A stretch of DNA of 64,000 nt, from NCBI GenBank assembly GCA_036835125.1, contig DAITMO010000001.1, positions 127,508 to 191,507 of the forward strand, written 5' to 3'. The notes under the pieces are model-generated. The model did no database searches, was not told where the DNA came from, and worked only from the letters and a program-made list of their open reading frames with translations. Shown piece by piece: positions 11,071 through 37,211 of the stretch. A program made the position numbers and the translations under genes. Position 1 is the first letter of the stretch; every line of letters starts with the position of its first letter. The stretch comes from Patescibacteria group bacterium. Its GTDB lineage: Bacteria > Patescibacteriota > Microgenomatia > UBA8517.

Positions 11071-11072
11071 TA

Positions 11073-13927: not shown

Positions 13928-15414
13928 ACCTTTTCAGTAACTTTATACTCCATATATTTTCCAAGCATAAGCCTTGTGTGGGCGTCTAACCCAGGAACTG
14001 CAGAAAGAAAGAATCCAACTACTGGCATTAATATAAATTCAAATGGGGTAAGAATAAATCTAAAGAAAGAAAAATGTTTTGGTCTTTTTGGTTTTTGAAT
14101 GTTATCAATCACTATTGTGACCAAAAGAAATGCAAGTGAGATTGTGAGAATGAAAGATGAAAGCTTGGGAACAGTATAACCAAGTGCGGTTCTTGCAAAA
14201 ACGGGGTTAAGAAGAGAGGGGATGGAAAGCCCGATTGTAATAGTAAACCAGTTAACAGGCCAAAGAAAATGAGACCATATAGCCTGAATAAGCCTCATTG
14301 TTTTATCCCAAAAAGGAATATCTCGTGTCAAAAAGTAGCTTTTTATAATCCATGGATCATCACTCACGCCCCACGCCCAGCGTTTAATTTGTTGATATTG
14401 ATTTCCTAGTGTTTTCCAGAATGTTGTTGATTGAGCAGCGTCTGCCCAAAGAGGTAGGAATATCGGTTCAACTTCGACATTTCCTCCTGATTTATAAAAA
14501 GACTTAAAAAATATTCCCCAATCTTCAGGAATTTTGTCTGCATCCCAATAGCCAACAGAATCAAGAAGTTTAAAGGAAAGTGAATAGTTTTGGGCATTAA
14601 TAAGTCTATCTCTTCTTGGGAGTTGGGAAAGATTATAAATACTCATAAGAGTATTAAGAACACGGGTTATTGCTGGTATCTCCCAAATGTTGTTATAAAA
14701 CATGACTGATGCCTGCCAGAACTTCTTGTAGCGATTTGGATCATCCAAAAATTTGTAGGTAAGACATGCATAGTGGTTTGGGTGGAATTTATGATCTGCA
14801 TCACAAGAAGTGACTGTAAAATAATCAATATTTAACTTATTTTTTTCAATGTAATTTTCTTTTACCCAGATAGCTGCATATTTTTCATTTGATGATTTCC
14901 CAACTGCTTCACCGGGTTGTAATTCGTGGACCGTCACAAAAAACTTTCCAAATTTTCTTTTATACTTTTCTTCCAAGACTTTAACCTTAGCAAGACGATC
15001 GGTCTCAGGTTCATTTTTTTCCATTGCAAGAACAGGAATTATCTGTTTGGTTGGAAGGGTTTGAGAAGCCAAAGAATCAAATGTTCGTTCAAGAATATAG
15101 AGAGGTTCTTTGTAAGTTGGGATAATTACAACATGTCTAACTTCTTGGTAGTCTGGAAATCCTTTAACATCTCCCATCCAATCATATATCTTTGCAGCCT
15201 GGATTCTTGTATGGGATATTATTGAAGAGACAGCAATCTGCATAGATTGGATTAACCAGTAAACATTGAATGCCAAAATCATATATGCAATAAATTCTGG
15301 AAAAACAAAAATTCCCCAATAGGGAAGAAGTATAAAGTTCCATGACATAAAGCCAGGAAGAATCTCAAGAATTCTCTGAACCTGTTTATCATGTTTTTCT
15401 ATAAATTTACGCAT
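13924..15414 (-). CDS. membrane-bound family 2 glycosyltransferase
   Basis: GT2 motifs (VVIIPTYKEP, TSCDADHKF, QIKRWAWGVSD) plus N- and C-terminal TM segments. Confidence 0.65.
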   Translation of the reverse strand: MRKFIEKHDKQVQRILEILPGFMSWNFILLPYWGIFVFPEFIAYMILAFNVYWLIQSMQIAVSSIISHTRIQAAKIYDWMGDVKGFPDYQEVRHVVIIPTYKEPLYILERTFDSLASQTLPTKQIIPVLAMEKNEPETDRLAKVKVLEEKYKRKFGKFFVTVHELQPGEAVGKSSNEKYAAIWVKENYIEKNKLNIDYFTVTSCDADHKFHPNHYACLTYKFLDDPNRYKKFWQASVMFYNNIWEIPAITRVLNTLMSIYNLSQLPRRDRLINAQNYSLSFKLLDSVGYWDADKIPEDWGIFFKSFYKSGGNVEVEPIFLPLWADAAQSTTFWKTLGNQYQQIKRWAWGVSDDPWIIKSYFLTRDIPFWDKTMRLIQAIWSHFLWPVNWFTITIGLSIPSLLNPVFARTALGYTVPKLSSFILTISLAFLLVTIVIDNIQKPKRPKHFSFFRFILTPFEFILMPVVGFFLSAVPGLDAHTRLMLGKYMEYKVTEKV

Positions 15415-22545: not shown

Positions 22546-23130
22546 CTAGTCAATTTTATCTATTGGAAGCCAGTCATTAATCAAATCAAGGTTTTTAGCA
22601 TTAAAAACAAAATAATATCCTCCACCTTTTCCTAACTCATATCCAGATTTTGGAATATTCATTTTTTTGATATACCAATTAAGTAGAACTCCAACTCCGC
22701 CATGACTTGCTATAAAAATATTCTTGTTAGGATTTTGTCTTATGATGTTTTCAATGGTTGTAACAATTCTATTTTGTACATCAGTAGCTTTCTCCCAACC
22801 CCGAACACTTTCATCTGGATACTCAAAAAACTCTTTAACAACCTTCCAAAATTCATTCTGACCCAAATACCCAGTAGAAGATCTATCAATTTCTCCAAGC
22901 TCTTCAATTGTCTGTGGTTTTATTTGTAAATTGTCTGAAACAATATTAGCTAAATCGATTGCTTTTTGTTCATTAGAAGAAAATATTTCCTGAATATTTT
23001 CAATCCATGGTTGTCTTAACATCTTTTTTGCTCTGTCAAACCCAAGTGCTGATAAGTGCCACTTTGGGACAGGAATATCAGCGTCTTGTTGTACTTCAGG
23101 GTGAGTAACAAAATAAATACTATTTGACAT
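22546..23130 (-). CDS. histidine phosphatase (phosphoglycerate mutase) family protein
   Basis: The internal start MSNSIYFVTHPEVQ at 23130 avoids a 214-nt overlap with the upstream gene. FIASHGGV is the C-terminal His motif. The track ORF extends to 23334. Confidence 0.55.
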   Translation of the reverse strand: MSNSIYFVTHPEVQQDADIPVPKWHLSALGFDRAKKMLRQPWIENIQEIFSSNEQKAIDLANIVSDNLQIKPQTIEELGEIDRSSTGYLGQNEFWKVVKEFFEYPDESVRGWEKATDVQNRIVTTIENIIRQNPNKNIFIASHGGVGVLLNWYIKKMNIPKSGYELGKGGGYYFVFNAKNLDLINDWLPIDKID

Positions 23131-23974
23131 ATTTTGAAAACTTGAGCTTAGTATAGCATCCAGGATAGGAAACTTCGAAGCCTCCAAAAGATTGTTTGAA
23201 ATGAGTAAACCCAAGCCAATCTTTATTTGGGAACCTGGGATCAAATACGCCTTCGAAATCAAAAATCTTAAAACCATTCTTTTTAGCCCATAGTATGCCT
23301 TGATAGAGGAGAGAGTATTGGGAGAGTAGGGCACGTCCTTCTTTATTTGTAAATGCTTGCCAATAGTAAGTGATATAGTTTGATCTTTCGTGTGAAGAAG
23401 TCGTGAAAATCACTCCACCTATAATTCTGCCAGAAATATTGTGCGACGCAAGGAATAGAGACTTGCTTTGTGGAAAACTTTTCTTAAGTTTAATTAATTG
23501 TTCAGCTGACGGCACATATCGTGAGATTTTTACTGATTTTTTCCACCCCTTTCGGAACTTTTTGATTTCATCGGGAGTTGAGTATTCGACGATTTTAACC
23601 CCTCCCCCCTTTCGAATCGCGTATCTTGCATCTTTTTTAAAATGTTTGATTATCTCCTCTCGACTCTTGGTCAGGTCAATTTGCAGAGTTTTGCTTGGCA
23701 AATATGTGTTTTTTGCATGTTTAAAACCAATGGAGGCTAAGTATTTGGCATCCAACTCGTTCTTTGGTTCAATAATAAATTGAAATACCCCATATTTACG
23801 GCATAATTTCTTGATTGTATCAATTCTGATTTCTTCTGGTCTTTGCACTTTCAGAATTGATCCAAAGAGTGGAACCTTTTTAATGAAGTAGTTTATCTCA
23901 GCAATTCTTTCAACTGTCCAGCCAATACTTTTAAGATATTTTGCGTAAGATTCACTTTGTCTTATATCAATCAT
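23120..23974 (-). CDS. FemAB-family peptidoglycan peptide-bridge aminoacyltransferase
   Basis: 284 aa. KDARYAIRKGGGVKIVEY matches the FemAB TRYxIRKAxKxGV motif. It is paralogous to the adjacent gene. Confidence 0.6.
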   Translation of the reverse strand: MIDIRQSESYAKYLKSIGWTVERIAEINYFIKKVPLFGSILKVQRPEEIRIDTIKKLCRKYGVFQFIIEPKNELDAKYLASIGFKHAKNTYLPSKTLQIDLTKSREEIIKHFKKDARYAIRKGGGVKIVEYSTPDEIKKFRKGWKKSVKISRYVPSAEQLIKLKKSFPQSKSLFLASHNISGRIIGGVIFTTSSHERSNYITYYWQAFTNKEGRALLSQYSLLYQGILWAKKNGFKIFDFEGVFDPRFPNKDWLGFTHFKQSFGGFEVSYPGCYTKLKFSKYVK

Positions 23975-23975
23975 T

Positions 23976-24920
23976 TCAAAATCTATTTTTGGAGAGTTTT
24001 ACGGCAATTGGGTTTTTAAGTATTTTCCAACGAATACTTTCTACAATTCTATAAATGAGGTAAACAGGTTTATTTACTACCAGATCCCAAGTTCCCAAAA
24101 ACTCAATGACTTTTGGATTATAACCTTCTTTAAATTTAGTAAATCCTTTCCCTTCCTCTCTCCCCCAAAGGTCAAATGTTGTTAATTTCAATTTTTTTCC
24201 AAGTTTGATGGCCTCCCACATCATGAGATTATTTGCCATTACTTCTTTATGTGCTTCAGTGGAAGCCCCATATGGATAATATAAAAAGTCTTTCCATGTA
24301 AAAAGAATCCATGTAGTAATAATTTTTCCTTTATATGTAGCCGTAAGAAGATGGGCAATCCCTGCCTCCTTAAGCGTATTCCACATAAGCTTGTGATACT
24401 TTTCTGTGTGAGCATAGAAGCCCTGCCTTTGAGTAGTTTCGCGGGTTAATTCTAGATACTTTTTAAAAGCTTTGTCTGAATTATCCTCTATCACTTTTAC
24501 TCCTTTCCTCTCAGCAAGCCTGATGTTGTAGCGGGTTTTACTGGTGAAACTTTTTAAGAGATCCTCCTCCGACTTTGTTAAATCTATCCAAAAGGTAGTT
24601 GGTGTAAAAAACCTTTTGCCAGGAACTGCCCCAGAAGATTCCATAAGGCTAATTAGTTTTTCATCCTTTTGACAGTTTGGCTCGAGTTTTACAAAAATAA
24701 TGTTATTTTTCTTTGCAATTTCTTTAAGCCCATCAAGCATTTTGGTAGTTGGGGTTGGTCCCTTTTCAAAGATTGCTAGTTTATAATGAATACCTGGAAT
24801 CTTGTGAATCGTGAGAATTCCCCAGGCAGTTTCTAAAACTTCATTTCCCCAGGCTTTTCGGAAACTTTCCCAATAAGTTGTTTGCAGAGGGTGGGTGGCA
24901 ATATCGTTAATTTTATTCAT
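23976..24920 (-). CDS. FemAB-family peptidoglycan peptide-bridge aminoacyltransferase
   Basis: 314 aa. Signatures: TTYWESFRKAWGNE, TSKTRYNIRLAERKGVKV, LLTATYKGKIIT. Confidence 0.65.
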   Translation of the reverse strand: MNKINDIATHPLQTTYWESFRKAWGNEVLETAWGILTIHKIPGIHYKLAIFEKGPTPTTKMLDGLKEIAKKNNIIFVKLEPNCQKDEKLISLMESSGAVPGKRFFTPTTFWIDLTKSEEDLLKSFTSKTRYNIRLAERKGVKVIEDNSDKAFKKYLELTRETTQRQGFYAHTEKYHKLMWNTLKEAGIAHLLTATYKGKIITTWILFTWKDFLYYPYGASTEAHKEVMANNLMMWEAIKLGKKLKLTTFDLWGREEGKGFTKFKEGYNPKVIEFLGTWDLVVNKPVYLIYRIVESIRWKILKNPIAVKLSKNRF

Positions 24921-26847
24921 TGTCTAAATATTTATTAATTATATCGTCAAATGTTCCTTTGATGTCGTCAATGTCTGTGGAAACGTCAGACATTATATCT
25001 TTTACTCCTCCCAAAACTCCACCAACACTATCTAGTAAATTTTCAGGTATATCCATAATAAATCTACTTGGAGGGTTACTTATTCTCTCTCCAAAATAAA
25101 GTCGGGAATTGGCATAAATTAGATATAGCTGATTCATTGCACGAGTTATTCCAACATATGCAAGGCGACGTTCTTCTTCCATCTGGGAACTATCCATAAG
25201 ACTTCTGCTATGAGGGAAAAGCCCTTCTTCCATTCCAACTATAAAAACAATTGGAAACTCCAATCCCTTTGCAGCATGTAGCGTCATTAGAGTTACTGAA
25301 TTCTTTTCCTGAAGATTCCCTGACACGTGTTTACTGGAGTCCTGAGAGGTTTCAACCAATGTTACATTTTCCAAAAACTCGATAACATTTGGAAACTCTG
25401 TTGCAACACTTCTTAGTTCCTTTAAGTTCTCAAGTCTGGCAATGTTTTCCTCTGTTTCTTTTTGGAAAAGAGCAAGATAGTCTGTTTTTTGAATAACAGC
25501 ATCAAGAATATCTAAGGTTGTTAGTTCAGAGAAGTCTGGATTTTCCACTCTAAAAGTTTCAAGTTTTTCAAACCGTCTAATCCCAATTTTTTCAATTCTT
25601 TTTTTTGATACTTTGTCTTTTGGATTTGTTAAGTATCTGATGAACGCCAGAACATCTTTAATTTCTTTTCTGTCATAGAACTTAACTCCCCCAACAAGCA
25701 TGTATGGAATTCCACCATGAAGAAAGGCCTCTTCTAAAACACGGGACTGGGCATTTGTTCTATAAAGAATAGCAATGTCTTTGTAATTCAGTTTATCTTT
25801 TGAATATTTAACCAAAGTCTTAATTTCATCAACTACAAAATCTGCTTCATCAAAACCATTTTTAGCAGAATAGAGTTTAATCTTGTTCCCATTTTCTTTT
25901 TCTGTCCAAAGTTTTAATACGGGGTGGCTTGTGTTTTTAGAGATTACCAAATTTGCCGCACTAAGGATGTTTCCTGTCGATCTGTAGTTTTGTTCAAGAT
26001 TAATTATTTTTATGTTTGGATAATCCCTCATTAGATAATTGATGTTTCGGTAGTCAGCCCCGCGCCATGAGTAAATTGATTGGGAAGCGTCCCCTACAGC
26101 TGTAATATTTTTTCCTTTTCCAACCAAAAGTCTGGTTAGAGCATACTGGATTTTATTTGTATCTTGCCACTCATCTACAAAGATATGAGTTAACCTTTTG
26201 TTCCACTTTTCTAAAACTTCGGGGACTTCTTTAAAAAGAACAACAGTCTTGATAAGAAGGTCATCAAAGTCGAGTGCCCCTGCCTCTTTTAATCTTTTCT
26301 CATACTCAACATAAACTTTAGCAGCCATTTCCTGCCACTCACTTCTAACAAAGTTTACGTATTCGGCGGGGCTTAACATCATGTTTTTTGCTTCACTTAT
26401 CCCATTCAAAATTGAGTTGGGGTTAAATTGATCAGTTGAAATATTTAGCTCTTCCATAATCTCTTTAACAGTTTCTTTTTGGTCAGAGTCATCATAGATA
26501 ACAAAATTTTTGGGGATACCTATATACTCTCCATCAATCCTTAAGACCTTTGCACAAAATGAATGAAAAGTGGAAGCCATAATTTGAAGTTTGGAGTCAA
26601 GGAGCTTTAGGATTCTTTCTTTCATTTCGGAAGCAGCTTTGTTTGTGAATGTTAAAAGAAGTGCGTTCTCAGGTTTTATTAAGCCTTTCTCTATAAAATA
26701 GGCAACGCGGTGGGTCAAAACTTTTGTCTTTCCGCTGCCGGCCCCTGCTAATACCAAAAGAGGACCTTTCGTATAAGTGACTGCCTCTTTTTGTTCTTTG
26801 TTTAAACCAGTTATACTTATCTCAGACATGTCTGACCATTCTAACAT
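24913..26847 (-). CDS. pcrA: ATP-dependent DNA helicase PcrA/UvrD
   Basis: Walker A LLVLAGAGSGKT, HIFVDEWQDTN, LMTLHAAKGLEFPIVF, VGITRAMNQLYL. An alternative start, MSEISI, at 26829 is plausible. Confidence 0.88.
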   Translation of the reverse strand: MLEWSDMSEISITGLNKEQKEAVTYTKGPLLVLAGAGSGKTKVLTHRVAYFIEKGLIKPENALLLTFTNKAASEMKERILKLLDSKLQIMASTFHSFCAKVLRIDGEYIGIPKNFVIYDDSDQKETVKEIMEELNISTDQFNPNSILNGISEAKNMMLSPAEYVNFVRSEWQEMAAKVYVEYEKRLKEAGALDFDDLLIKTVVLFKEVPEVLEKWNKRLTHIFVDEWQDTNKIQYALTRLLVGKGKNITAVGDASQSIYSWRGADYRNINYLMRDYPNIKIINLEQNYRSTGNILSAANLVISKNTSHPVLKLWTEKENGNKIKLYSAKNGFDEADFVVDEIKTLVKYSKDKLNYKDIAILYRTNAQSRVLEEAFLHGGIPYMLVGGVKFYDRKEIKDVLAFIRYLTNPKDKVSKKRIEKIGIRRFEKLETFRVENPDFSELTTLDILDAVIQKTDYLALFQKETEENIARLENLKELRSVATEFPNVIEFLENVTLVETSQDSSKHVSGNLQEKNSVTLMTLHAAKGLEFPIVFIVGMEEGLFPHSRSLMDSSQMEEERRLAYVGITRAMNQLYLIYANSRLYFGERISNPPSRFIMDIPENLLDSVGGVLGGVKDIMSDVSTDIDDIKGTFDDIINKYLDNE

Positions 26848-27904
26848 TCCAAAGGTAGAAGAAGTACCTCCAAAAAAGAAAAAAAATAATGTTGAAAAGA
26901 TAATTTTTCTAGTAATTTTATCTATTCTTCTTCTGTTAACATTAAGTATTGGTGCATTTTTATTTAGATATCCTGAAATCTCAAAGGCAACTTACAACTT
27001 CATAAAAGCACCAGTTTCTCAAGTTTCCTCAAACAATAACAAAATAAACATTCTTCTTATGGGTAAATCTGGGGAGAATCATGATGGAGCAGATTTGACA
27101 GATACAATGATGCTCGTCTCAATTCCCTTAAAAGATGGAGAAATAAAAACAGTGTCAATTCCAAGAGATGTTTGGGTACCAGAGTTAATGGCAAAAATTA
27201 ATTCTGCATATTATTGGGGTAAATATGGAAGCGCATATTTTTCTCTTCAAGACACAGGGGGAGGAATTTCTTTTGCAAAAAGAATTGTAGGCAAAATTAT
27301 TGGACAGCCTATTCAATATGGTGTCGTAATTGATTTCTCAGCGTTCAAAGATATTGTAGATGCGGTAGGAGGAATCAGTGTTGATGTTGAGCATCCTTTT
27401 GTAGATAACTTCTATCCAATAGAAGGTAGGGAAAATGATCTTTGTGGTGGTGACAAAAGTTTTTCCTGTCGTTATGAAACTGTGATCTTTGATTCAGGAG
27501 TCCAAACAATGGATGGAGCAACGGCTCTAAAGTTTGTTAGGTCTCGTCATGCAGAAGGAGATGAAGGTACAGATATTGCAAGAGAATCCAGACAACAGAA
27601 AGTAATTGCGGCAATCAAAGACAAAATTGTTGAACCAAAAACTTACCTATCCACTAAAAGAATTTCGGCACTTTTGACAATAGCAAACAAATATATAGAA
27701 ACTGACATTAATCTTCCAACTGTTGGAATAATTGTCAGAAAAGGATTGGAGAATATGAATAATATTTCTCAGAAAAGATTTCCTGAAAACTTGGTTGTTG
27801 TTCCAAAAACCAACCCAATATATGACAACCTATATGTTTTTATTCCAAAAGCAGGGAATGGGAATTGGGAAGAAATTCAGAAGTGGTTTACCGAAAACTT
27901 TTAA
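26828..27904 (+). CDS. LytR-CpsA-Psr (LCP) family cell-envelope polymer transferase
   Basis: TM anchor followed by the LCP core (ILLMGKSGENHDGADLTDTMMLVSI, VSIPRDVWV, ALKFVRSRH). The start MSDHSN at 26828 is used. The track start at 26777 would overlap pcrA. Confidence 0.75.
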   Translation: MSDHSNIPKVEEVPPKKKKNNVEKIIFLVILSILLLLTLSIGAFLFRYPEISKATYNFIKAPVSQVSSNNNKINILLMGKSGENHDGADLTDTMMLVSIPLKDGEIKTVSIPRDVWVPELMAKINSAYYWGKYGSAYFSLQDTGGGISFAKRIVGKIIGQPIQYGVVIDFSAFKDIVDAVGGISVDVEHPFVDNFYPIEGRENDLCGGDKSFSCRYETVIFDSGVQTMDGATALKFVRSRHAEGDEGTDIARESRQQKVIAAIKDKIVEPKTYLSTKRISALLTIANKYIETDINLPTVGIIVRKGLENMNNISQKRFPENLVVVPKTNPIYDNLYVFIPKAGNGNWEEIQKWFTENF

Positions 27905-29154
27905 AAACTTACCCATCCAAACTTGTTGATCCAAAGCACTCCCCAAAGATTGACCATTATTGATAAGAAGAGTAAAAACCAATGGTACCACCTAAGTCCA
28001 GTTTTGGTAGCTCCCTTGATCGTTAAGAACAATAGAAAAGGATAAAAATCCACAGCATATCTATAGCCAAATTGGGAGAACCCTGTTGAACCATACGAAA
28101 AGTTTATTAGTGCAATCAACAAGATTACAACCCACAATTGCTTAACAATTTTTTCTTTTATGTTTGCACAAAAAGCAAAAACAAAGGCTGGAGTTGTAAT
28201 CCAAATTGACATTCCGGCCCACGAAGGAAAAATATAAGGTACATGGTTTGTAAATATAGGTAAACCAAGTAGAAATATTTTTAGATGTTTTGGAATATAA
28301 GAAAAACTAAACTGACCATATTTGAACCACGGTTCATCAAGAATACCAGGAATTAGAGTATATCCGGTTTCCCATGGTCTTCCGAAGCGGAAATAATTAT
28401 AAAGACTATAAAGAATTACAAAAAATGATAAAGCAATCATTATTTTTAGAACACCTTTTTTATCGAATTTTGGTTTTAATAAATATGTAAACAAAATAAG
28501 ACTTGGGAGAAGTTGTAATCTTGAAAGTAAAGCGGCAGACAGTAAAAATCCAATTACAAGTGGTCGTTTTTTATCAATATACTCGAGTAACATAGCTGCA
28601 ATGAAGAAGGTGGCGGTAATTTGACCTAAATACCAAACAGATCCAGTTGAAGATAAAAACCAAATTATGTTTCCAAAAGCAGTTAGTAAACCAGTCCAAA
28701 TTGTAATTTTTTTATTTTTGCTAACTTTCCAAGAAATTAACATCATAAGAACAGTTATTCCAGCACCAACAATGTGAGCCATATATTGCTGTTCAAAATT
28801 TGAGCCAAAGAAAAATCTAAATGGGGCAATAATAACTGCCGGCATTGGTGGATTGACAAATGTGAACTTATTATTTCTAATGGTTATTAATTCACTTAGC
28901 CAGGAAGGATTTTCTTCTAAATATATTTTTCCATGGAGAAATGAATCCGAAAGTCGAGTAAAATAGTCGTACGGAGTTTTTCCTCCTGAGGTAAGTAGAT
29001 AAACAATGAAGACAAAAATAAAAGAAAAAGCAAGAAATTTCTTCATACCTAATATTGTATATGTTTTAATATTTGGGTTCTTGACTAGATTATTTCTATC
29101 TTTTTTTGGAACTCTACATTTGGACCAAGGAACTTTCGTTGCATGGAGTAACAA
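27901..29154 (-). CDS. polytopic membrane protein, GT-C-like glycosyltransferase candidate
   Basis: At least 10 TM segments. The start may be the internal MKKFLAF at 29046. It is divergent from, and overlapping, the next gene's predicted start. Confidence 0.4.
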   Translation of the reverse strand: MLLHATKVPWSKCRVPKKDRNNLVKNPNIKTYTILGMKKFLAFSFIFVFIVYLLTSGGKTPYDYFTRLSDSFLHGKIYLEENPSWLSELITIRNNKFTFVNPPMPAVIIAPFRFFFGSNFEQQYMAHIVGAGITVLMMLISWKVSKNKKITIWTGLLTAFGNIIWFLSSTGSVWYLGQITATFFIAAMLLEYIDKKRPLVIGFLLSAALLSRLQLLPSLILFTYLLKPKFDKKGVLKIMIALSFFVILYSLYNYFRFGRPWETGYTLIPGILDEPWFKYGQFSFSYIPKHLKIFLLGLPIFTNHVPYIFPSWAGMSIWITTPAFVFAFCANIKEKIVKQLWVVILLIALINFSYGSTGFSQFGYRYAVDFYPFLLFLTIKGATKTGLRWYHWFLLFLSIMVNLWGVLWINKFGWVSF

Positions 29155-31480
29155 TCTGGTGGTAGATGGATTTAAGAATTTTTACAATGGATGGAGTGAT
29201 TATTTACCAGGATATTTATATATATTGTGGTTTTTGGGGAAAATAAATCTTTTGGGTTTTATTCCACAAGTGGTGCTTTATAAACTACCCGCAATATTTT
29301 CAGATCTTTTAACTGGATTTTTGATCTATAAAATTATTAAGAAAAATCTTTCATTAAAATTAAAAAAAATATCTAATAAAAATGAATGTTTGGGACTTCT
29401 CGGAGCACTTATTTATATTTTTAACCCAGCAATTTTGGCAAATTCTTCACTTTGGGGGCAAGTTGATTCATTGACTGCTTTATCAGTAATTTCATCAATA
29501 TATTTGTTTGATAAAAAATATATTCTTTCTGCAATAGCTTTAGCAATCGGAACTTTAATAAAACCACAAGCTGCATTTGTTTTGCCAATAATCTTATATT
29601 TGTTTGTAGTAAATAAAAGAAAACTTAGTGAACTATTTTTCTATTGTTATACTGGTTTATTAGTATTCATTTTAGGTTTTATTCCTTTTTCAAATGGTAA
29701 CTTTTTTGAATTTATTATTAATAGACTTTCTTTGTCTGCTAATCAATATCAATATACTTCAGTAAACGCTTTTAACTTCTGGGGGCTTTTTGGGATGTGG
29801 AAACCAGACAATGTGGTATTTCAGTTTGGAAGTTATTTACTTGTAATTTTATTGTTTACTGTTTTACTAATTAAATTTAGAAAGAAAAAAATATCTCCTT
29901 ATACACTTGCTGTATTTATTTTCACTGCAAGCTTTATGCTCTTTACCAGAATGCATGAAAGGCATCTTTTGCCAGCGTTTGCTCCGATGGCAATTATCTT
30001 GATTGAAAACTCACTTTTTATTTTTCCATACTTAGGACTTTCAATAATATATATTTTGAATTTGCTTTATTCCTACAAGTGGATTACAGAAAATTTTATT
30101 AAAGTATATCCTGATATATTTACAAAATTTCTAGAAATATTTGGCATATTTTTCTTGGTTTTTGTCTTTTTAATAATATTAAAAAACTTTCAAATTACTT
30201 GGAAGAAATTAATATCATTTGCAAAAAATCTTGTTAATAAAATAAGTACATCAAAAACAGAAATGTCTCCAATGCCTCAAATTAAATTGTCCAATAAAAA
30301 ATCAAAAATTATTCTTCTTTTGATTCTAATATTTGCTTTTACTTCTCGAGTTTATAAATTAGGATCTCCAACAACAATGTATTTTGATGAGGTTTATCAC
30401 GCCTTCACTGCAAAAGTGATGATGGGGGAAGATAGAGCAAAAGCTTGGGAATGGTGGAACACTCCACCTGAAGGATTTGCGTATGAGTGGACTCACCCGC
30501 CTTTGGCAAAACTTGGAATGGTTATGGGAATGAGTATTTTTGGACAAAATTCATTTGGTTGGAGGATTCCAGGGGTATTACTAGGGGTAGGATCGGTATT
30601 TTTGATATATCTTTTGGCAAAAGAAATTTTTAAAGATGAAACCATAGGACTAATCTCTGCTGGGGTATTTTCACTTGATGGTTTGTCTTTGATTTTAAGC
30701 AGAATTGGTATGAATGATAGCTATCTATTATTCTTTTCACTTCTTTCAATATATTTGTTTTTAAAACAAAAAGATGCATTTTCTGCGTTATCTTTTGGTC
30801 TTGCACTTTCTTCTAAATGGTCTGCCTTGTGGGTTGTTCCAGTTCTTTTTATTCTTTGGCTGAAGCGCAGGAATAAATTTACTCCAGTTACGTTTTTGTC
30901 ATTTTTATTTTTACCAATTGCTATATATTTTTTAACCTACTTACCGATGTTTATAACAGGGCACACTATAGAGACTTGGTGGGGAATGCAAAAACAAATG
31001 TGGTGGTATCATACAAGACTTGATGCAACTCATTCTTATTCATCTCCTGCCTGGACCTGGCCATTTTTGGTTAGACCAGTATATCTTTATACAAGTGATG
31101 AAATAGGAGGATTTGTTTCAAGAATATATTTAATGGGTAATCCATTTGTTTTTTTCTCTGGATTTGCTTCAGTTTTAATGTGTGCAATATATTCAATAAT
31201 AGAGAGAAACAAAAATCTCGGGATAATTGTTTTTTCGTACCTTGTTTTCTTTGTCCCCTGGATTGCATCTCCAAGAGTTATGTTTTTATATCATTATCTT
31301 CCCTCAGTTCCATTCTTATCAATCGCAATAGCGTATGTTTTACGTAGAAATAGACGAATACTTCTTTTGTATATTGCTATTGCGGTTATATTGTTTATAT
31401 ATTTTTATCCTCATTGGACAGATATACAGATCCCTCTTTGGTTGGACAAAAGTTACTATTGGATAACAAGCTGGAGATAG
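29006..31480 (+). CDS. two-module GT-C membrane glycosyltransferase; C-terminal module is a PMT (protein O-mannosyltransferase, GT39)-like domain
   Basis: 824 aa with two TM-rich halves. The second half begins with the PMT loop-1 DE motif (MYFDEVYHAFTAKVMM ... YEWTHPPLAKL). The start at 29006 overlaps the divergent upstream gene, so the true start may be downstream. Confidence 0.6.
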   Translation: MKTKIKEKARNFFIPNIVYVLIFGFLTRLFLSFFGTLHLDQGTFVAWSNNLVVDGFKNFYNGWSDYLPGYLYILWFLGKINLLGFIPQVVLYKLPAIFSDLLTGFLIYKIIKKNLSLKLKKISNKNECLGLLGALIYIFNPAILANSSLWGQVDSLTALSVISSIYLFDKKYILSAIALAIGTLIKPQAAFVLPIILYLFVVNKRKLSELFFYCYTGLLVFILGFIPFSNGNFFEFIINRLSLSANQYQYTSVNAFNFWGLFGMWKPDNVVFQFGSYLLVILLFTVLLIKFRKKKISPYTLAVFIFTASFMLFTRMHERHLLPAFAPMAIILIENSLFIFPYLGLSIIYILNLLYSYKWITENFIKVYPDIFTKFLEIFGIFFLVFVFLIILKNFQITWKKLISFAKNLVNKISTSKTEMSPMPQIKLSNKKSKIILLLILIFAFTSRVYKLGSPTTMYFDEVYHAFTAKVMMGEDRAKAWEWWNTPPEGFAYEWTHPPLAKLGMVMGMSIFGQNSFGWRIPGVLLGVGSVFLIYLLAKEIFKDETIGLISAGVFSLDGLSLILSRIGMNDSYLLFFSLLSIYLFLKQKDAFSALSFGLALSSKWSALWVVPVLFILWLKRRNKFTPVTFLSFLFLPIAIYFLTYLPMFITGHTIETWWGMQKQMWWYHTRLDATHSYSSPAWTWPFLVRPVYLYTSDEIGGFVSRIYLMGNPFVFFSGFASVLMCAIYSIIERNKNLGIIVFSYLVFFVPWIASPRVMFLYHYLPSVPFLSIAIAYVLRRNRRILLLYIAIAVILFIYFYPHWTDIQIPLWLDKSYYWITSWR

Positions 31481-31482: not shown

Positions 31483-31770
31483 TCAGGCTGGTCCGAAACG
31501 GAAGTTTCCCTTCAGAATTAAGAATACCAATATTCCTAAAATAAAAATTGTGACAAGGAAGTAGGTTACAGACCATTTTCCAGATTTTGGAAAAAATTTA
31601 TCAAAAGGATAATATGAAAAATTTTCAGATTTCAACTTACCTAATGTATAAAAAGTCAGCTTGTATCCTAAATAAATTACTAGAATAAGAACTAGTACCA
31701 ATATAATTATAGAAAAATTGGAATTAACAAAATTGGTAATGTGTTTTGATAACTCAATTAGTTTATTCAC
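31483..31770 (-). CDS. small membrane protein
   Basis: 95 aa with two TM segments. It is the last gene of the minus-strand surface-protein operon. Confidence 0.35.
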   Translation of the reverse strand: MNKLIELSKHITNFVNSNFSIIILVLVLILVIYLGYKLTFYTLGKLKSENFSYYPFDKFFPKSGKWSVTYFLVTIFILGILVFLILKGNFRFGPA

Positions 31771-31777
31771 AGAATAT

Positions 31778-32305
31778 TTAGATTACTAATAAAATTGATC
31801 CGAAGAGAATGATTATTCCCAAACCAATTCCTGTAAGAGTTGGCCAACTAATCCCCGACTGAGGTAAAGCTGCAGCTGTTGCTGTTGGAGTGGCAGTTCC
31901 ACATGTGCAATCTGTATCCTCCGGACAATTTGGATTTCTGCAGTAGCCATTGTAACAGTAATATCCTGATCCACAATTAGAATTGCTTCCACAAGTACCA
32001 CCACAAGAATTTGGTTCTCCGGAGGAAGTTGGAGTTGGTGTTGGTGACGGAGTTGAAGAACCAGTTGCTGTTGGAGTAGCAGAAGGTGTGCTGGTTGGAG
32101 ATGGTGTAATAGTTGAAATTGTAAAAGACAGAGAACAACCAACTAGAGGAGTTAGAGCTTTAGGATTACTACTTGGTGCATTTGGTGCAACAGTAGTCTC
32201 TCTTAATTGATAAAGTCTGAAAGCTGTAAAAATAGCAACACCTGCCAATATAACTGTAGCAATTATTATTAAAGTTGTTCCAACTTTTCCAATAGGTTTT
32301 TTCAT
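31778..32305 (-). CDS. secreted/anchored Thr-Pro-rich protein with Cys-rich module and C-terminal LPQSG + hydrophobic tail
   Basis: N-terminal signal anchor and a TPSPTSTPSATPTATGSSTPSPTPTPTS linker. Cys module: GEPNSCGGTCGSNSNCGSGYYCYNGYCRNPNCPEDTDCTCG. It ends AAALPQSGISWPTLTGIGLGIIILFGSILLVI. Confidence 0.6.
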   Translation of the reverse strand: MKKPIGKVGTTLIIIATVILAGVAIFTAFRLYQLRETTVAPNAPSSNPKALTPLVGCSLSFTISTITPSPTSTPSATPTATGSSTPSPTPTPTSSGEPNSCGGTCGSNSNCGSGYYCYNGYCRNPNCPEDTDCTCGTATPTATAAALPQSGISWPTLTGIGLGIIILFGSILLVI

Positions 32306-32312
32306 ATTATTT

Positions 32313-33476
32313 TTAAAACCACCCTAATGTTGGATGGTGGACTTGACCTGAAATATTAAATGTAGTTGTATCACTTGGAATGGTATAGCTCTGACAGAAA
32401 TCATTTGATTCCGCCCTTTGCAATGTGGTCTCTTCATTCAGTATTCCGTTTATAGTAAATCTTGCTTTATCAAAAATTCCAGACGAAGAATAACCAGAAA
32501 CACACAAATAAATGACGTCCCCTTCTTTCAAGAGCGATCTGTCGCTTGCACTAATTAGCTCCCAACTTGAAGAATAGGTAGATATAGATGAACAATATGT
32601 TGATATAGGGGGACTTGTTGGTGGTGAAGTTGGGGGACTTGTTGGTGGTGAGGTGGGTAAAGTTGGGTCACAAAGCTCATTTGTACATCTAGTTCCATTT
32701 CCTTGATAAGTACACGCATTGGGTGTGAGACAGTAGTTTCCGGGTGCTGGATTCCTTCCAGAAGGACATATACAATTAGCGTTTCCTATGATGGGTTGTC
32801 CATATTCGGCCTTGACGTTGTAGCATTTATAAATCTTTTCGGCACCATAACCGCCACAAAAACTTCCACCTATATCATGATCATAAACACAATCCATATC
32901 GCCTAGTTGACATGTAGGTTTTGAAGCACACACACCTCCGTTACACAATCCACTACAACATTCTGCATTACTTGAGCATGATTTACTATTTGTTTTACAG
33001 CAAATACCACCGTTACAAGTACCATAACAACATTCACTTGAGTTGCTGCAGGCACCACCAATTAATACATTACAATTTCCAGCAACACAAAGTCCATCAC
33101 TACATACTCCTGAAGTACATTCTGAATTTTTTCCACATCTGCTTCCATTGGAATATGCTGCCTCTTGTTTAAACAGTTGTTTTTGCCCAATCAAATATGT
33201 ACCTGCACCCAACCCTCCCACTAATACTAAAATTCCCAAGATTGTTGCAATAATTCTTTTTGTTCCAAATTTTTTCTTTGGATTTGAAGCAATGTTGTTT
33301 GTATTAGGAACAGGAGAAGCTGTTCCAGAATCTTTGACTGGTTTATTCTCTATCTGTTCTGTTTTTTCCACATTCTGAAAATCTGCAGGCATTGGTGGCA
33401 GATCTGTTTGAGAAGCAAATGATATTCCCGGATTAGGATTATTTTGTTGTTGGTTATTTGAGTCTTGGTTGGGCAT
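32313..33476 (-). CDS. membrane-anchored Cys-rich repeat protein with (TSPP)n linker
   Basis: Q/N/P-rich N-terminus, then a TM anchor. Three knottin-like Cys repeats follow (CGKNSECTSGVCSDGLCV; CSNSSECCYGTCNGGICC; CSSNAECCSGLCNGGVC). Then TSPPTSPPTSPPTSPP and a C-terminal domain. Confidence 0.55.
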   Translation of the reverse strand: MPNQDSNNQQQNNPNPGISFASQTDLPPMPADFQNVEKTEQIENKPVKDSGTASPVPNTNNIASNPKKKFGTKRIIATILGILVLVGGLGAGTYLIGQKQLFKQEAAYSNGSRCGKNSECTSGVCSDGLCVAGNCNVLIGGACSNSSECCYGTCNGGICCKTNSKSCSSNAECCSGLCNGGVCASKPTCQLGDMDCVYDHDIGGSFCGGYGAEKIYKCYNVKAEYGQPIIGNANCICPSGRNPAPGNYCLTPNACTYQGNGTRCTNELCDPTLPTSPPTSPPTSPPTSPPISTYCSSISTYSSSWELISASDRSLLKEGDVIYLCVSGYSSSGIFDKARFTINGILNEETTLQRAESNDFCQSYTIPSDTTTFNISGQVHHPTLGWF

Positions 33477-33533
33477 GTTAATAAATATATCTATTCACTC
33501 CATTGTAGAATATGTGTCTTATTTGGTCAAAGT

Positions 33534-34331
33534 TTATATCGCCAAAAGGAGCAGAGACCCAATTATCACAATTGTTCCAATTCCCATTCCAAGGAAACTG
33601 GGCCAATTAACTCCTGACTGTGGTAATGCAGCCTGCGTTGGCGTTGGTGTTGGAGATGAACAATTACAATCTTGATTTGCAGGACAACTTGGGTTTCTGC
33701 AGTAGCCATTATAACAATAAAAATCTGTTCCACAATTAGAATTGCTTCCACAAGTACCACCACAAGAATTTGGTTCCCCTGATGATATTGGAGTTGGTGT
33801 GGCTGTTGTAGTCGCAGTTGGAGTTGATGATGGAGTGGCGGTTGGGGTAGGCTCTAGTGTTGGAGTTGGTGTTGGTTCTATAGTTGGTGTGGGTGTCGAA
33901 ACAATTTCAACCGCTGCTGGGGCATGATAACAACATATTGGCAATACAGCATCTCCCGCACTACACGTTACTCCTGACTCCTCTCCGGCTCCCATCTGGT
34001 CATCTCTTGCTGGTGTAGTCTGGCATTTTGGTGTACAGTCACAAGCTTCCTCTTCTAGTATTTGAGGTTGTTGTGTGAGAATAATACCAGCACCAATACC
34101 TCCCACAATAACAATAACTCCCAAAATAGCAGCGATGATTTTCTTCTTTTTCCCAAATTTTCCTCGTGGTTTAGCAATGATTGTGTTTGGAGAAGCAACT
34201 ACACTACTTACATTTCCACCATTTTGTAATTCTGTTGGCATTGGTGGTAAGTCTGTTTGAGAAGCAAAAGACCCTGCAGTAAGATCACTCTGTGATGTTT
34301 GTTGTTGATTTGGATTATCTTGATTGGGCAT
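33534..34331 (-). CDS. secreted/anchored Thr-Pro-rich protein with Cys-rich module and C-terminal LPQSG + hydrophobic tail (paralog of 31778..32305)
   Basis: It shares the N-terminus (MPNQD..NQQQ..SFASQTDLPPMP plus TM) with 32313..33476. It shares the Cys module (GEPNSCGGTCGSNSNCG..YCYNGYCRNP.CP) and the LPQSG tail with 31778..32305. Confidence 0.6.
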   Translation of the reverse strand: MPNQDNPNQQQTSQSDLTAGSFASQTDLPPMPTELQNGGNVSSVVASPNTIIAKPRGKFGKKKKIIAAILGVIVIVGGIGAGIILTQQPQILEEEACDCTPKCQTTPARDDQMGAGEESGVTCSAGDAVLPICCYHAPAAVEIVSTPTPTIEPTPTPTLEPTPTATPSSTPTATTTATPTPISSGEPNSCGGTCGSNSNCGTDFYCYNGYCRNPSCPANQDCNCSSPTPTPTQAALPQSGVNWPSFLGMGIGTIVIIGSLLLLAI

Positions 34332-34333
34332 AT

Positions 34334-35698
34334 TTAATTTTCAGCTTCTCTCCAGACGTAAAAACCAAAGGATACTACCCCCAATCCCACTATTAACATT
34401 AACACAGTTGGAAGCAAACTCCCAGATTTTGGAAGTGAGGATGGTGTAGCTATGAGAGTTGGAGAAGGTTTAACTGTTGGCGTTGAAGTTGCCTTTGGTG
34501 TTGCTGTCGGACTACCTGTTTTTACAGGAGTCGGAGTTGGTGTTGCTGTCTGTTTTGGTGTTGCTGTTGGAGTCGATTCAAAAGCAGGCAATTCTCCAGC
34601 TTGTACTACAAAGTTTCTGGTTATTGTGCGTGTTATTCCTGAAAGATCTATCCATGAAATAGTAATAGTGTGTTCACCTGGACTCAAATTTGAAGGAGGT
34701 GACCAACTCCAAGAACCAGTTGAAGCGACTTTTGTACTGCCTGTAATCTCCTCATCTGAGTGAACGGTAATGGTTATGTTTGTACCTTTTGGTCCATCTC
34801 CAAAAAATTCAGGAGTATCGCTAGTAATTACTTCTCCCTCAGTTATGCTCTCAAGAGTTACTTTTGAGGAGTCTGAACTAACAGAATCTGAATCAACATT
34901 AAATTTTGATTCAGAAGTGGCACTTGTTGGAAGTTCTAAATTTGCATTGGGGTTGTTCCCATCAGCAATTGGTTCAAGACTTCTAAAATCTTGATCTTTT
35001 CCAATGATTAGAGCTGGTATTGGATTTGCAGACCTTGGATAAACCTTAGCTGTTGCAATTTCTCCCGTTTCAGAAATAGCAGAGATTTCAAGAAGAGTTT
35101 TGTTTAAGTCAATTTGGGCATATGATTTCAAGTCTGTAGTGCGCACTGAACCAAGTTGTATTACAAATACCCCACTGTCAGATGTAATTGACGATATTGT
35201 ATAGCCATTAACCATAATATGAATAAGTGCTCTTTTTGATGGTTCACCCGAAGCTGTCAATATTGATCCTGATATGGGGATAGAAGGTTGACTTGTATTT
35301 ATTTTTTTACCAGTTGAAAATTGCCAAGTTGTGCCGTTATTATCAAACATTTTTCCTTCAGAGTTAATTTTGAAATAGTAGATAGTCTCCGGCTCTAATC
35401 CGGTAAGAGTAATACTATGAGTGTTATAGCCTTCCTCGTCTTCACTTTCATTTGCGACTGTTCCGACGTTTTGAGAAGTACCATATGAAACAAAACCTGT
35501 TGTTGCGTCTTCGGTAAACCAAGATACAGTAGCGGAAGAATCAGAAATTGAACCAATACGAATATTATTAGGTGTTATTGTAGGACTGGCGCCAATTCTA
35601 AATACTTGATTGTTTCTTAATAGAATAACTCCAGCAAAAACACCAAAGAAAAGAACAATGATCCCTAGTATTGTTGGTATTTTATTTCTTTTAATCAT
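34334..35698 (-). CDS. cell-surface protein with FN3-like and Ig-like domains, TP-rich stalk and LPKSG sorting-signal-like C-terminus
   Basis: Signal anchor, then an FN3/PAP-N-like domain (SATVSWFTEDATTGFVSYGTS...ETIYYFKINS). An Ig-like domain follows (GTNITITVHSDEEITGSTKV...HTITISW). Then a TPTATPKQTATPTPTP stalk. It ends LPKSGSLLPTVLMLIVGLGVVSFGFYVWREAEN, i.e. motif, TM, then a charged tail. Confidence 0.6.
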   Translation of the reverse strand: MIKRNKIPTILGIIVLFFGVFAGVILLRNNQVFRIGASPTITPNNIRIGSISDSSATVSWFTEDATTGFVSYGTSQNVGTVANESEDEEGYNTHSITLTGLEPETIYYFKINSEGKMFDNNGTTWQFSTGKKINTSQPSIPISGSILTASGEPSKRALIHIMVNGYTISSITSDSGVFVIQLGSVRTTDLKSYAQIDLNKTLLEISAISETGEIATAKVYPRSANPIPALIIGKDQDFRSLEPIADGNNPNANLELPTSATSESKFNVDSDSVSSDSSKVTLESITEGEVITSDTPEFFGDGPKGTNITITVHSDEEITGSTKVASTGSWSWSPPSNLSPGEHTITISWIDLSGITRTITRNFVVQAGELPAFESTPTATPKQTATPTPTPVKTGSPTATPKATSTPTVKPSPTLIATPSSLPKSGSLLPTVLMLIVGLGVVSFGFYVWREAEN

Positions 35699-36066
35699 AT
35701 TTGTGCACTAGGTGAGGCACTTTGAGTGGCCTCTACATTTATTGGTTCAGGTGTAATTGTTGGAATTGGAACAACCATAGTATTTGATTCTATATTAAGT
35801 GGCGGAATTTCAGAATCAGGAATAAAAATTGCAGACTCAATCAATTGAATAGATTCCAAATTAATATTTGGATCTATTGGTTTTGTAATGTTTGTAGGCA
35901 CAATTGTAGGTGGTTTAATTGTGAATGTTCTGTAAACAGACAAACTTACCCACAATAACGTAGTTAGAAGGGTGAGTATAAGTATGGAAATTGGTTTAGG
36001 GATTTTTCCCTTATTTTGATTATCTGTTTTCATATAAGTATGGGATTCTTCCCGAAATGACAGCAA
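35695..36066 (-). CDS. membrane-anchored Pro-rich protein (possible PilP-like pilus assembly component)
   Basis: 123 aa with one TM and a Pro/Ile-rich periplasmic tail. It lies immediately downstream of pilO-like. The true start may be MKTDNQ at 36033. Confidence 0.3.
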   Translation of the reverse strand: MLSFREESHTYMKTDNQNKGKIPKPISILILTLLTTLLWVSLSVYRTFTIKPPTIVPTNITKPIDPNINLESIQLIESAIFIPDSEIPPLNIESNTMVVPIPTITPEPINVEATQSASPSAQI

Positions 36067-36679
36067 TTAGTGTTTTCCCTTCGTTGGTTGTAGATGAGCT
36101 GATGGATACGTTATCAATTATCGATATTACTCTCATTCTACCCATATTTGTAATAAAATTGTTTATATTATTGTAAAATCCCCTAACATTTAATACATAA
36201 CTTACTCCCTTTGTTTCATTAGGTAAATCTATTAGTACATCTTCGTTAATGGTGGATTTTAATTGACCTTTTACAACAATTTCTTTCATTGATATTCCGA
36301 CCAAATCAACTTCATTTCTAACAGCCAATCCTTCTACCTGTTTTGCAAATAAATCTGGATTTGGTGAAGATGGAATAGCAGTATTAATTATCTCTAATAT
36401 AGGTTGGTATTGATTAACAATATTGTTAGCTTTTTTTAAATCATTTAACTTCTTATCAAGAATACTTATTACTTTCTTTTCTTCATTGATTTGTTGAACC
36501 AGGCTGATTATGGTTAAAGCTGTTGGTTTAATAGCAAACACTAAAAAGACCAATACAGCAATTATCGAAAGTACGATTTCCAAAAATGCCCTCAAGTCTG
36601 CCCTTTTTTTGTATAGCTCAGTAACATTTAAAAAAACCTCTTTATATCTTAGATAAGCTGATTTCCAATTAGATGCCAT
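36020..36679 (-). CDS. type IV pilus assembly protein PilO-like
   Basis: 219 aa. Single N-terminal TM after a short cytoplasmic segment, then a coiled coil and a ferredoxin-like C-terminal domain. It sits directly after pilN-like. Confidence 0.45.
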   Translation of the reverse strand: MASNWKSAYLRYKEVFLNVTELYKKRADLRAFLEIVLSIIAVLVFLVFAIKPTALTIISLVQQINEEKKVISILDKKLNDLKKANNIVNQYQPILEIINTAIPSSPNPDLFAKQVEGLAVRNEVDLVGISMKEIVVKGQLKSTINEDVLIDLPNETKGVSYVLNVRGFYNNINNFITNMGRMRVISIIDNVSISSSTTNEGKTLIAVISGRIPYLYENR

Positions 36680-36680
36680 G

Positions 36681-37211
36681 TTAGTATTCTATGTCTATAA
36701 CAAAATTTGTTCCTCCAAAATTACTTTCAGATGAACTCAGTTGTTTTAATTCAACTTTTTTGAAAAGATCACCTTCAAGATTATTAATATAACCACTAAT
36801 ATCAAAATCTGATAAGGAATAACCTCTGATATTAATAGATTTGTTTTCAATTACTATTCTGGATAACGTTATTGTTGTGGGTATGCTTCCAGTGATTTTG
36901 TCTAATATCTGAGTAGTATTTTGAATTTTTGCTATTTTTCCATAGGTATCGACTTTTGTTTGCATACTTCGAAATTGTTTTTCTAACTCTCCTTGAGCCA
37001 AAATTTGTCCGGTTTTGACTTTTATTATTTTGTTCAAATTTGAATTCTGAGTGTCAAGCCAAAATCTTGAGAGAAATGCAGCCATTACAACTATTTCTGT
37101 CACAATGACGATGATACGAAATGTACCCGTTGCCCATTTTAAAACACGACCAATGGTGGAAGAATTAAATTCTTCTTGAGGAAGTAAATTTATTGACTTA
37201 TTTTTGGGCAT
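36681..37211 (-). CDS. type IV pilus assembly protein PilN-like
   Basis: N-terminal INLLP motif (MPKNKSINLLPQEEF), which is the PilM-binding signature of PilN. It is followed by a single TM and a periplasmic domain. Confidence 0.55.
   Translation of the reverse strand: MPKNKSINLLPQEEFNSSTIGRVLKWATGTFRIIVIVTEIVVMAAFLSRFWLDTQNSNLNKIIKVKTGQILAQGELEKQFRSMQTKVDTYGKIAKIQNTTQILDKITGSIPTTITLSRIVIENKSINIRGYSLSDFDISGYINNLEGDLFKKVELKQLSSSESNFGGTNFVIDIEY

Follow-up and report, generated by a model that had tools for sequence, protein, structure and literature searches.

We analysed a stretch of 64,000 nucleotides (nt), hereafter the window, from a Patescibacteria group bacterium (assembly GCA_036835125.1, contig DAITMO010000001.1, positions 127,508 to 191,507), and identified in it a gene for an 824-aa membrane protein that joins two modules of the glycosyltransferase C (GT-C) fold. 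The C-terminal one is a protein O-mannosyltransferase (PMT) module of family GT39, and the N-terminal one is predicted to be a second GT-C related to ALG6, glycosylphosphatidylinositol (GPI) mannosyltransferase I and PimE, with its active-site residues intact. Together with a 381-aa GT-C-fold protein encoded head to head with it, the fusion protein may form an extracytoplasmic glycosylation unit, in which the PMT module would initiate the O-glycosylation of Thr/Pro-rich linkers and the other GT-Cs would extend the glycan, a reading to which we give an even chance. In other species of Woesebacteria/Microgenomates the unit includes a variable set of additional GT-C genes. The reading draws on domain identities, conserved catalytic residues, a pattern of fused and split genes and synteny, all of them observed.

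The window is low in GC (about 33–36%), and its closest relatives are metagenome-assembled genomes of Candidatus Woesebacteria/Microgenomates. Synteny was compared over 80 species-level loci taken from GTDB genomes, and residue conservation in the 824-aa protein was judged over 120 homologues. For the N-terminal module (N module), a broad family profile of 71 diverse sequences and a narrower one of 17 homologues were used, and AlphaFold2 (AF2) models with Foldseek were applied to this module and to the 381-aa protein. Donor synthases and sortases were searched for in the 58 open reading frames (ORFs) scanned within the window.

The C-terminal GT39/PMT module

More than 120 full-length homologues of the 824-aa protein, 56–100% identical to it, were found in Microgenomates/Woesebacteria, labelled 'glycosyltransferase family 39 protein'. 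Pfam matches cover residues ~418–824, with 54.3 bits for PMT (PF02366; gathering score 22.7), 48 bits for PMT_2 (gathering score 26.1) and 63.9 bits, against 32.4, for PMT_4TMC (PF16192), the PMT-specific region of four transmembrane (TM) helices. The match to PF02366 is by itself not decisive for the family, since we take this model to include ArnT-type GT83 enzymes as well (InterPro IPR003342). When the module was searched against PDB sequences, the only matches at E ≤ 1 were two fungal PMTs, in the PMT_4TMC region, and neither ArnT nor an oligosaccharyltransferase was among them. The best NCBIfam model for the module was the protein O-mannosyltransferase equivalog NF058602.

The DE motif lies in external loop 1 (EL1), within YFDEVYHAF (residues 459–467), and in the alignment to yeast Pmt1 its D461–E462 fall on D77–E78, while D571 falls on D189 and R757/F760 on R649/F652 (all numbering counted from the printed alignment). 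D461, E462, D571, R757 and F760 are all invariant among the homologues. In a 2025 study of the M. tuberculosis enzyme (MtPMT), D74, D176 in EL2, and R441 and Y444 of the Rx2[Y/F] motif in EL5 were each essential, and their yeast equivalents are D77, D189, R649 and F652 (PMC12331936). We had also considered R690/Y693 (VRPVYLY) as the counterpart of the MtPMT Rx2Y motif and dropped this pair, as the Pmt1 alignment gives R757/F760.

The Pfam scan found no MIR domain in the module. As the actinobacterial Pmt is likewise devoid of MIR (bioRxiv 10.64898/2026.07.15.738315), the missing domain rules out the eukaryotic subtype alone. The sequence evidence supports a place for the C-terminal half in GT39/PMT, as a bacterial-type, MIR-less member, and not among ArnT or the oligosaccharyltransferases. 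A preliminary description of this DNA had located both ORFs where we find them (29006..31480 and 27901..29154) and had proposed a GT39/PMT-like C-terminal module with a loop-1 DE motif; the search with the PMT and PMT_2 models that it suggested placed both above their gathering scores, and the ArnT or oligosaccharyltransferase membership that it named as the alternative is contradicted by the PMT_4TMC match and by the fungal PMTs being the sole PDB matches.

The N-terminal module and its putative active site

The preliminary description overlooked a second GT-C module at residues 1–392. No Pfam family exceeded its threshold there: PIG-U came closest (23.5 bits against 24.5), and neither the Alg6_Alg8 nor the PIG-M model matched. 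GT87 (PF09594) did not match the copy in the window and matched only 1 of its 17 close homologues, though remoter members of the family pass the GT87 threshold (27.5–39 bits against 25). For this reason we would call the module GT87-like and not a clear member of GT87.

Profile and fold comparisons point to lipid-dependent GT-C enzymes with solved structures. The profile of 17 homologues matched GPI mannosyltransferase I in the PDB (E 1e-5), and that of 71 sequences matched yeast ALG6 (E 7e-12, positions 27–381) and GPI mannosyltransferase I (E 7e-11). The AF2 model of the module (pLDDT 84.9) was matched by Foldseek to PIG-U, ALG6 (query TM-score, TMq, 0.67), GPI mannosyltransferase I, PimE (TMq 0.57) and ALG3, at TMq of about 0.6.

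D40, the candidate catalytic residue just past the first TM helix (TM1), is invariant in 71 of 71 diverse members of the family, and R319 is also kept across these distant relatives. In the profile alignment D40 falls on the Asp of the ALG6 'GDFEA' motif, which we infer to be D69, taking the numbering of the tagged PDB chain to be shifted by 18. D69 is the catalytic base of ALG6 (PMC12653191), and its position has been equated with that of the catalytic Asp D58 of PimE, located at the tip of the first juxtamembrane helix; K195 and H322 of PimE bind the donor phosphate (PMC12041525). Among the 120 homologues of the fusion protein, none that covers the position departs from D40, D65, D154, K186, H317, R319 or H320, and E318, within the HERH motif (317–320), is unchanged in 119. 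The conserved D154, K186 and H317/H320 occur at positions similar to those of PimE D160, K195 and H321/H322.

The two modules are joined by a basic linker with 10 K/R and only 1 D/E. By the positive-inside rule this composition would place the linker in the cytoplasm and the first external loops, with the active sites, on the other side, so that both GT-C active sites of the 824-aa protein are predicted to be extracytoplasmic.

Fused and split forms across species

The fusion of the N module to PMT was found in 74 of the 80 species loci, whereas in four (L073, L075, L079 and L085) the two modules are adjoining separate genes. The split genes of L073 and L085 have stop/start overlaps of 4 nt and are translationally coupled; L079 has a co-directional three-gene run in the order 381-aa-type gene, N module and PMT, and in L075 the 381-aa-type gene is on the same strand, ~2.3 kb upstream of the split pair.

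An exhaustive search with the N-module profile returned 7125 cluster representatives, 957 of them at E ≤ 1e-30. Most of the best 150 representatives are stand-alone proteins of ~400 aa, and ~45 are fusions of the N module and PMT with 800–1290 aa, some of the longer of which (1136–1151 aa) are GT39-labelled proteins of Clostridia. The clostridial fusions have a spacer of ~200 aa, whereas the proteins from candidate phyla radiation (CPR) bacteria are shorter, at about 800 aa, and have no spacer. Stand-alone copies of the N module are also duplicated beside the fusion gene in L081 and L082.

The pattern of 74 fused and 4 split loci suggests that the two modules work together. At the level of sequence comparison, the series in Woesebacteria is independent evidence that a bacterial Pmt functions alongside another GT-C, one from the ALG6/PimE class, an idea put forward for mycobacteria only in 2026.

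The 381-aa neighbour and the variable GT-C slot

The minus-strand ORF at 27901..29154 encodes 417 aa if read from a TTG, and 381 aa from the ATG at 29046. Its family, found in 65 of the 80 loci, consists of 'hypothetical' proteins of ~381 aa in Microgenomates, for which sequence searches of Pfam and the PDB gave no usable match. The AF2 model (pLDDT 81.4, pTM 0.86) was matched by Foldseek to ALG12 (E 3.6e-4, TMq 0.56), ArnT, AglB, PimE and ALG9, and HHalign aligned the family to that of the N module with a probability of 95.8%. By predicted fold, the neighbour would be the third GT-C of the locus, in agreement with the preliminary description, which had listed it as a polytopic GT-C candidate.

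The locus as a whole consists of a conserved PMT fusion and, flanking it, extracytoplasmic transferases that vary between species, a set which can be called a 'GT-C island'. In other species the gap between the fusion gene and the upstream gene for a LytR-CpsA-Psr (LCP) glycopolymer transferase holds DUF2298 proteins (630–655 aa), a YfhO protein (757 aa), PMT_2 proteins, an unassigned protein of 552 aa or extra copies of the N module.

Head-to-head overlap of the two starts

The starts of the fusion gene (29006) and of the 381-aa gene (29046) overlap by 41 nt, which are read as coding sequence on both strands. The preliminary description had noticed the overlapping starts of these divergent genes and held that at least one was mis-set or not an ATG; the overlap stands, and the mis-set start does not, since both N-termini and the geometry are conserved. 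Forty fusion homologues start at the same position, with the pattern MK.K.K...FF.PNIVYVL, and many 381-aa homologues open with MKK[FL] right before TM1. An overlap of 6–77 nt is present in 35 of the 47 divergently arranged rows (46 species loci plus the window), and the commonest overlap, shared by the window and 10 other species, is exactly 41 nt. The window and L003, at 63% protein identity, share 31 identical bases around the overlap.

The bases for the Lys-rich N-terminus of one protein encode, in antisense, the Phe/Leu-rich first helix of the other, and the in-frame 'KTYTILGMKK' ahead of some calls of the minus-strand gene is likewise the antisense of the conserved 'FFIPNIVYVL'. Overlap-free starts were also considered, namely a TTG at 29081 for the plus-strand gene and a Met downstream of TM1 for the minus-strand gene; each would remove TM1, and the homologues conserve both N-termini. 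Since the N-termini are conserved, the alternative starts lose TM1 and the 41-nt geometry recurs, the overlap is real and old. Judged by these comparisons, it is genuine and conserved and not an annotation error. The promoter of each gene must lie within the coding region of the other. A scan of the divergent region was uninformative: it found no terminator and a single promoter-like site, where shuffled sequences would lead one to expect 4.6.

Neighbouring genes and surface proteins

The order of the block across the lineage is FemAB, UvrD, LCP, GT-C, fusion, surface proteins, PilO/N, S20, MurJ and HrcA, syntenic over ~20 kb (Table 1). The LCP gene is present in 66 of the 80 loci, and in the window it converges on the 381-aa gene, their stops overlapping by 4 nt. 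Further upstream are two adjoining FemAB genes (23120..24920, minus strand) for peptidoglycan interpeptide-bridge transferases, which are kept in the block with LCP and MurJ and would, should the surface proteins be linked to the wall, bear on their anchoring by sortase. The UvrD/PcrA helicase beside the LCP gene (24913..26847, 644 aa) is free of an intein in the window, while that of a relative (L003/L004, 4790..7768, minus strand, 992 aa) contains one (Pfam Intein_splicing).

On the other side of the fusion gene lies a minus-strand run (37211..31483). Its products are, from first to last, PilN, a PilO-like protein and a 123-aa protein, then the 454-aa fn3/Big_13 protein and proteins of 265, 387, 175 and 95 aa. 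The homologues of the last one occupy the same position as in the window, and no family match was obtained for it. The run and the fusion gene are tail to tail, with stops at 31483 (minus) and 31480 (plus), 2 nt apart. The preliminary description thus rightly placed the PMT gene beside Thr/Pro-rich surface proteins, four of which adjoin it, and was mistaken in placing it upstream of their operon.

Linkers rich in P/T/S/A were found in only four ORFs of the 64 kb, those of the 175-, 387-, 265- and 454-aa proteins. Across species, the small Cys-rich family has a Thr/Pro (TP)-rich linker in 61 of 63 members and a sorting-like C-terminal signal in 53 of 63, and the fn3/Big_13 family has the linker in 58 of 64 and the signal in 46 of 64. 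In the window, [LIVM]Px[TSA]G followed by a hydrophobic tail occurs in three proteins, and a charged tail in the 454-aa protein alone. Sortase is reported to be near-ubiquitous in Microgenomates (PMC6744442). MtPMT favours sites rich in Pro/Ala/Ser/Thr (PMC12331936), which by analogy makes the neighbouring TP linkers plausible candidate acceptors of the PMT module.

Table 1. Features of the fusion locus and of related regions. Positions are those of the window unless a locus of another species is named.
Feature	Position	Strand	Evidence or remarks
Tandem GT-C protein, 824 aa, ATG start	29006..31480	+	ORF; N-terminal ALG6/GPI mannosyltransferase I/PimE-like module and C-terminal GT39/PMT module
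N-terminal GT-C module, residues 1–392, candidate catalytic Asp D40	29006..30181	+	Profiles, AF2/Foldseek, conservation
Basic inter-module linker, residues 393–435	30182..30310	+	10 K/R vs 1 D/E; predicted cytoplasmic
C-terminal GT39/PMT module, residues 436–824	30311..31480	+	Pfam; alignment to yeast Pmt1 and a second fungal PMT
DE motif codons, D461–E462, EL1	30386..30391	+	Aligns with yeast Pmt1 D77–E78
41-nt overlap of the two start regions	29006..29046	both	Dual coding: MKTKIKEKARNFF on +, MKKFLAFSFIFVF on −
Stand-alone GT-C-fold membrane protein, 381 aa (ATG 29046)	27901..29046	−	AF2 and Foldseek, HHalign (predicted fold)
LCP (LytR-CpsA-Psr) glycopolymer transferase	26777..27904	+	Pfam LytR_cpsA_psr 111.9 bits; NCBIfam TIGR00350
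95-aa two-TM ORF, final gene of the minus-strand run	31483..31770	−	Homologues in 13 other loci
175-aa surface protein: N-terminal TM, TPSPTSTPSATPTAT linker, Cys-rich knot, LPQSG and hydrophobic tail	31778..32305	−	
387-aa Cys-rich membrane-anchored protein, (PTSP)n linker, no sorting signal	32313..33476	−	ORF
265-aa paralogue of the 175-aa protein, TP linker, LPQSG and hydrophobic tail	33534..34331	−	ORF
454-aa fn3/Big_13 surface protein, TP linker, LPKSG, TM and charged tail	34334..35698	−	Pfam Pur_ac_phosph_N, Big_13
123-aa TM/P-T-rich protein, PilO-like protein (219 aa), PilN (176 aa)	35695..37211	−	PilN Pfam match; order conserved
Second glycan cluster	9056..15414		UbiA, WecA-like GT4, 111-aa four-TM ORF, 502-aa weak PMT_2 GT-C, SDR sugar dehydratase/epimerase, 496-aa GT2_3 protein
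Large membrane proteins in the LCP–fusion slot of other species	L009:8128-10032, L046:7640-9559, L067:7685-9958, L082:4594-7565, L015:8271-9929		

Sugar donors and other features of the window

The sole GT2 protein in the window is the 496-aa Glyco_trans_2_3 protein, which is not Dpm1-like. The only candidate for a lipid-monophosphate-sugar synthase is a UbiA protein (9056..10027), which scored 203 bits against a cut-off of 207 with the model for decaprenyl-phosphate phosphoribosyltransferase, and which lies 18 kb from the fusion gene and beside another GT-C. The second glycan cluster, to which it belongs, looks like a polyprenyl-phosphate-pentose donor route for GT-C enzymes, comparable to that of mycobacterial arabinan synthesis, and could also feed the GT-Cs of the fusion locus.

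Elsewhere in the window we identified a diversity-generating retroelement (47062..49860), with a reverse transcriptase (RVT_1, 322 aa) at 48892..49860 next to two repeats of 125 nt. A 303-aa ORF without a family match has the variable copy (47847-47971) at its 3′ end, and the template copy is at 48358-48482; the two are 90% identical, and 11 of their 13 differences are at template adenines.

Comparison with known systems

The C-terminal module resembles Pmt of M. tuberculosis (Rv1002c) in being a MIR-less GT-C with the EL1 DE motif, the EL2 Asp, Rx2[Y/F] and PMT_4TMC. With the actinobacterial Pmt and PimE the locus would share Pro/Thr/Ala-rich acceptors as well as an associated second GT-C of the PimE/ALG6 fold class; it differs from them in having the two GT-Cs in one polypeptide, in its CPR host, in an N module that stays under the Pfam GT87 threshold and in having no Ppm1 gene nearby. 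Among solved structures, the best sequence relatives that the C-terminal module has are in the yeast Pmt1–Pmt2 complex (PDB 6P25), with which its catalytic residues align. That complex is likewise an assembly of two GT-Cs, but both yeast subunits are GT39 proteins with MIR, whereas the second module in the window is from another GT-C family and the protein is MIR-less.

Complexes and fusions that pair GT39 enzymes with GT87-like GT-Cs are in print. Mycobacterial Pmt co-purifies with the GT87-like Rv0051/ML2687c, and GT39 enzymes of Paenibacillus are fused to a GT87 enzyme, e.g. V9WAU2 (July 2026 preprint, bioRxiv 10.64898/2026.07.15.738315). The mycobacterial partner reportedly lacks the catalytic residues (same preprint), while the N module of the window retains them. 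By profile and by fold, the N module was best matched to ALG6 (GT57) and Gpi14/PIG-M (GT50); it has the column of the EL1 catalytic Asp in common with ALG6 (PMC12653191), and the lipid-phosphate-monosaccharide donors of these enzymes are predicted for it as well. Both are, on the other hand, eukaryotic enzymes of the endoplasmic reticulum that act on lipid-linked oligosaccharide or GPI, and their identity to the N module is 14–19%.

Possible roles of the locus

For the acceptor, the sugar and the order of action of the glycosylation unit, we infer the following scheme. The PMT module would take a hexose, probably mannose, from a polyprenyl-phosphate-sugar and put it on Ser/Thr of unfolded Pro/Thr/Ala-rich linkers of Sec-exported surface proteins during their export, with the neighbouring sortase-signal proteins as candidate substrates. 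The N module, the 381-aa enzyme and the variable GT-Cs would then lengthen the glycan from lipid-(polyprenyl-)phosphate sugars. The scheme parallels the one of mycobacteria, where PimE (GT87) elongates the O-mannose that Pmt has initiated (PMC12757957, PMC12331936).

Several points weigh against this scheme. With the actinobacterial Pmt equivalog NF058602 the C-terminal module scored 71.9 bits, far under the cut-off of 800, which makes it a distant member of the family and not an orthologue of the actinobacterial Pmt. The equivalence between the N module and K195/H322 of PimE is one of position and not of residue-level alignment. Neither a sortase nor a Dpm1/Ppm1-like GT2 (PF00535-type) was found among the scanned ORFs of the window, and we found no biochemical or glycoproteomic report of protein glycosylation in CPR bacteria in the literature. 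The surface-protein operon converges on the PMT gene and is not co-transcribed with it. Their adjacency is, moreover, weak evidence of a link between enzyme and substrate, since the block also conserves unrelated genes (UvrD, S20, MurJ and HrcA), and it may be inherited gene order.

If so, the PMT module could be a protein O-glycosyltransferase for which the TP-linker neighbours are not particular substrates, the adjacency being frozen gene order of the lineage. We regard this as rather doubtful: the housekeeping genes kept in the same block and the convergent orientation favour it, but the 64 kb encode no TP-linker proteins other than the four neighbours, and the linkers of these match the known site preference of a bacterial PMT (PMC12331936). 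In addition, an enzyme active on such linkers anywhere would modify the neighbours as well.

Another explanation, which we think unlikely, concerns the N module, which might be chiefly structural, a built-in pseudo-dimer for the PMT module that helps to recruit the acceptor peptide and adds no second sugar. It would then resemble Pmt2, the partner of Pmt1, or Rv0051/ML2687c, the catalytically dead GT87-like partner of mycobacterial Pmt. The pull-down by Pmt of a GT87-like protein without catalytic residues and the Paenibacillus GT87–GT39 fusions, cited as a sign of general dimerisation, are in line with it (bioRxiv 10.64898/2026.07.15.738315), and the pattern of fused and split genes fits an obligate complex. 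A purely structural partner would, however, hardly account for the EL1 Asp on the catalytic base of ALG6, for the conservation of K186 and HERH in the 120 homologues and of D40 and R319 in the 71, or for the abundance of stand-alone copies of ~400 aa, duplicated in L081/L082, as expected of working enzymes. The structural and catalytic roles of the N module are not mutually exclusive.

It is distinctly unlikely, in our view, that the GT-C cluster decorates or builds a wall glycopolymer or lipoglycan, attached to peptidoglycan by LCP, with the PMT-like module acting on a non-protein acceptor, as the C-terminal module has the PMT_4TMC region and all four residues of the PMT catalytic centre, and protein O-mannosylation is, to our knowledge, the sole activity of characterised GT39 members (CAZy). 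YfhO-type enzymes glycosylate teichoic acids, and the LCP gene (adjacent in 66 of the 80 loci) together with the YfhO, DUF2298 and PMT_2 proteins in the variable slot of other species fits wall-polymer glycosylation equally well; FemAB and MurJ are also nearby, and the closest solved relatives of the N module all work on lipid-linked glycans.

Returning to initiation by the PMT module and extension by the other GT-Cs, its most specific form is one that we put forward only tentatively, as it seems somewhat improbable: two competent active sites in one protein, a GT39 initiator and an ALG6/PimE-like extender, would, with the variable GT-C island, build O-glycans on linkers of sortase-anchored or pilus-associated proteins. 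If true, CPR/Patescibacteria would have their first protein O-glycosylation system here, and the Pmt/GT87-like complex, the partner in which turned pseudo-enzyme in mycobacteria, would exist here in an 'active-partner' state.

The annotation of the gene as GT39 was already known, as were GT87–GT39 fusions (bioRxiv 10.64898/2026.07.15.738315). What appears to be undescribed is the near-universality of the protein in Woesebacteria, its intact second active site and the series of fused and split forms, and also the variable GT-C slot, the conserved 41-nt overlap and the pairing with sortase-signal Pro/Thr-linker proteins. Since its two active sites (D40 and D461) are separable, this one gene is convenient for telling initiation from extension by heterologous expression. 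The life of CPR bacteria is one of attachment to other cells, a contact in which their surface proteins are believed to be the mediators; a near-universal PMT-type enzyme in Woesebacteria, encoded beside Pro/Thr-linker proteins, is a concrete and testable candidate for their glycosylation.

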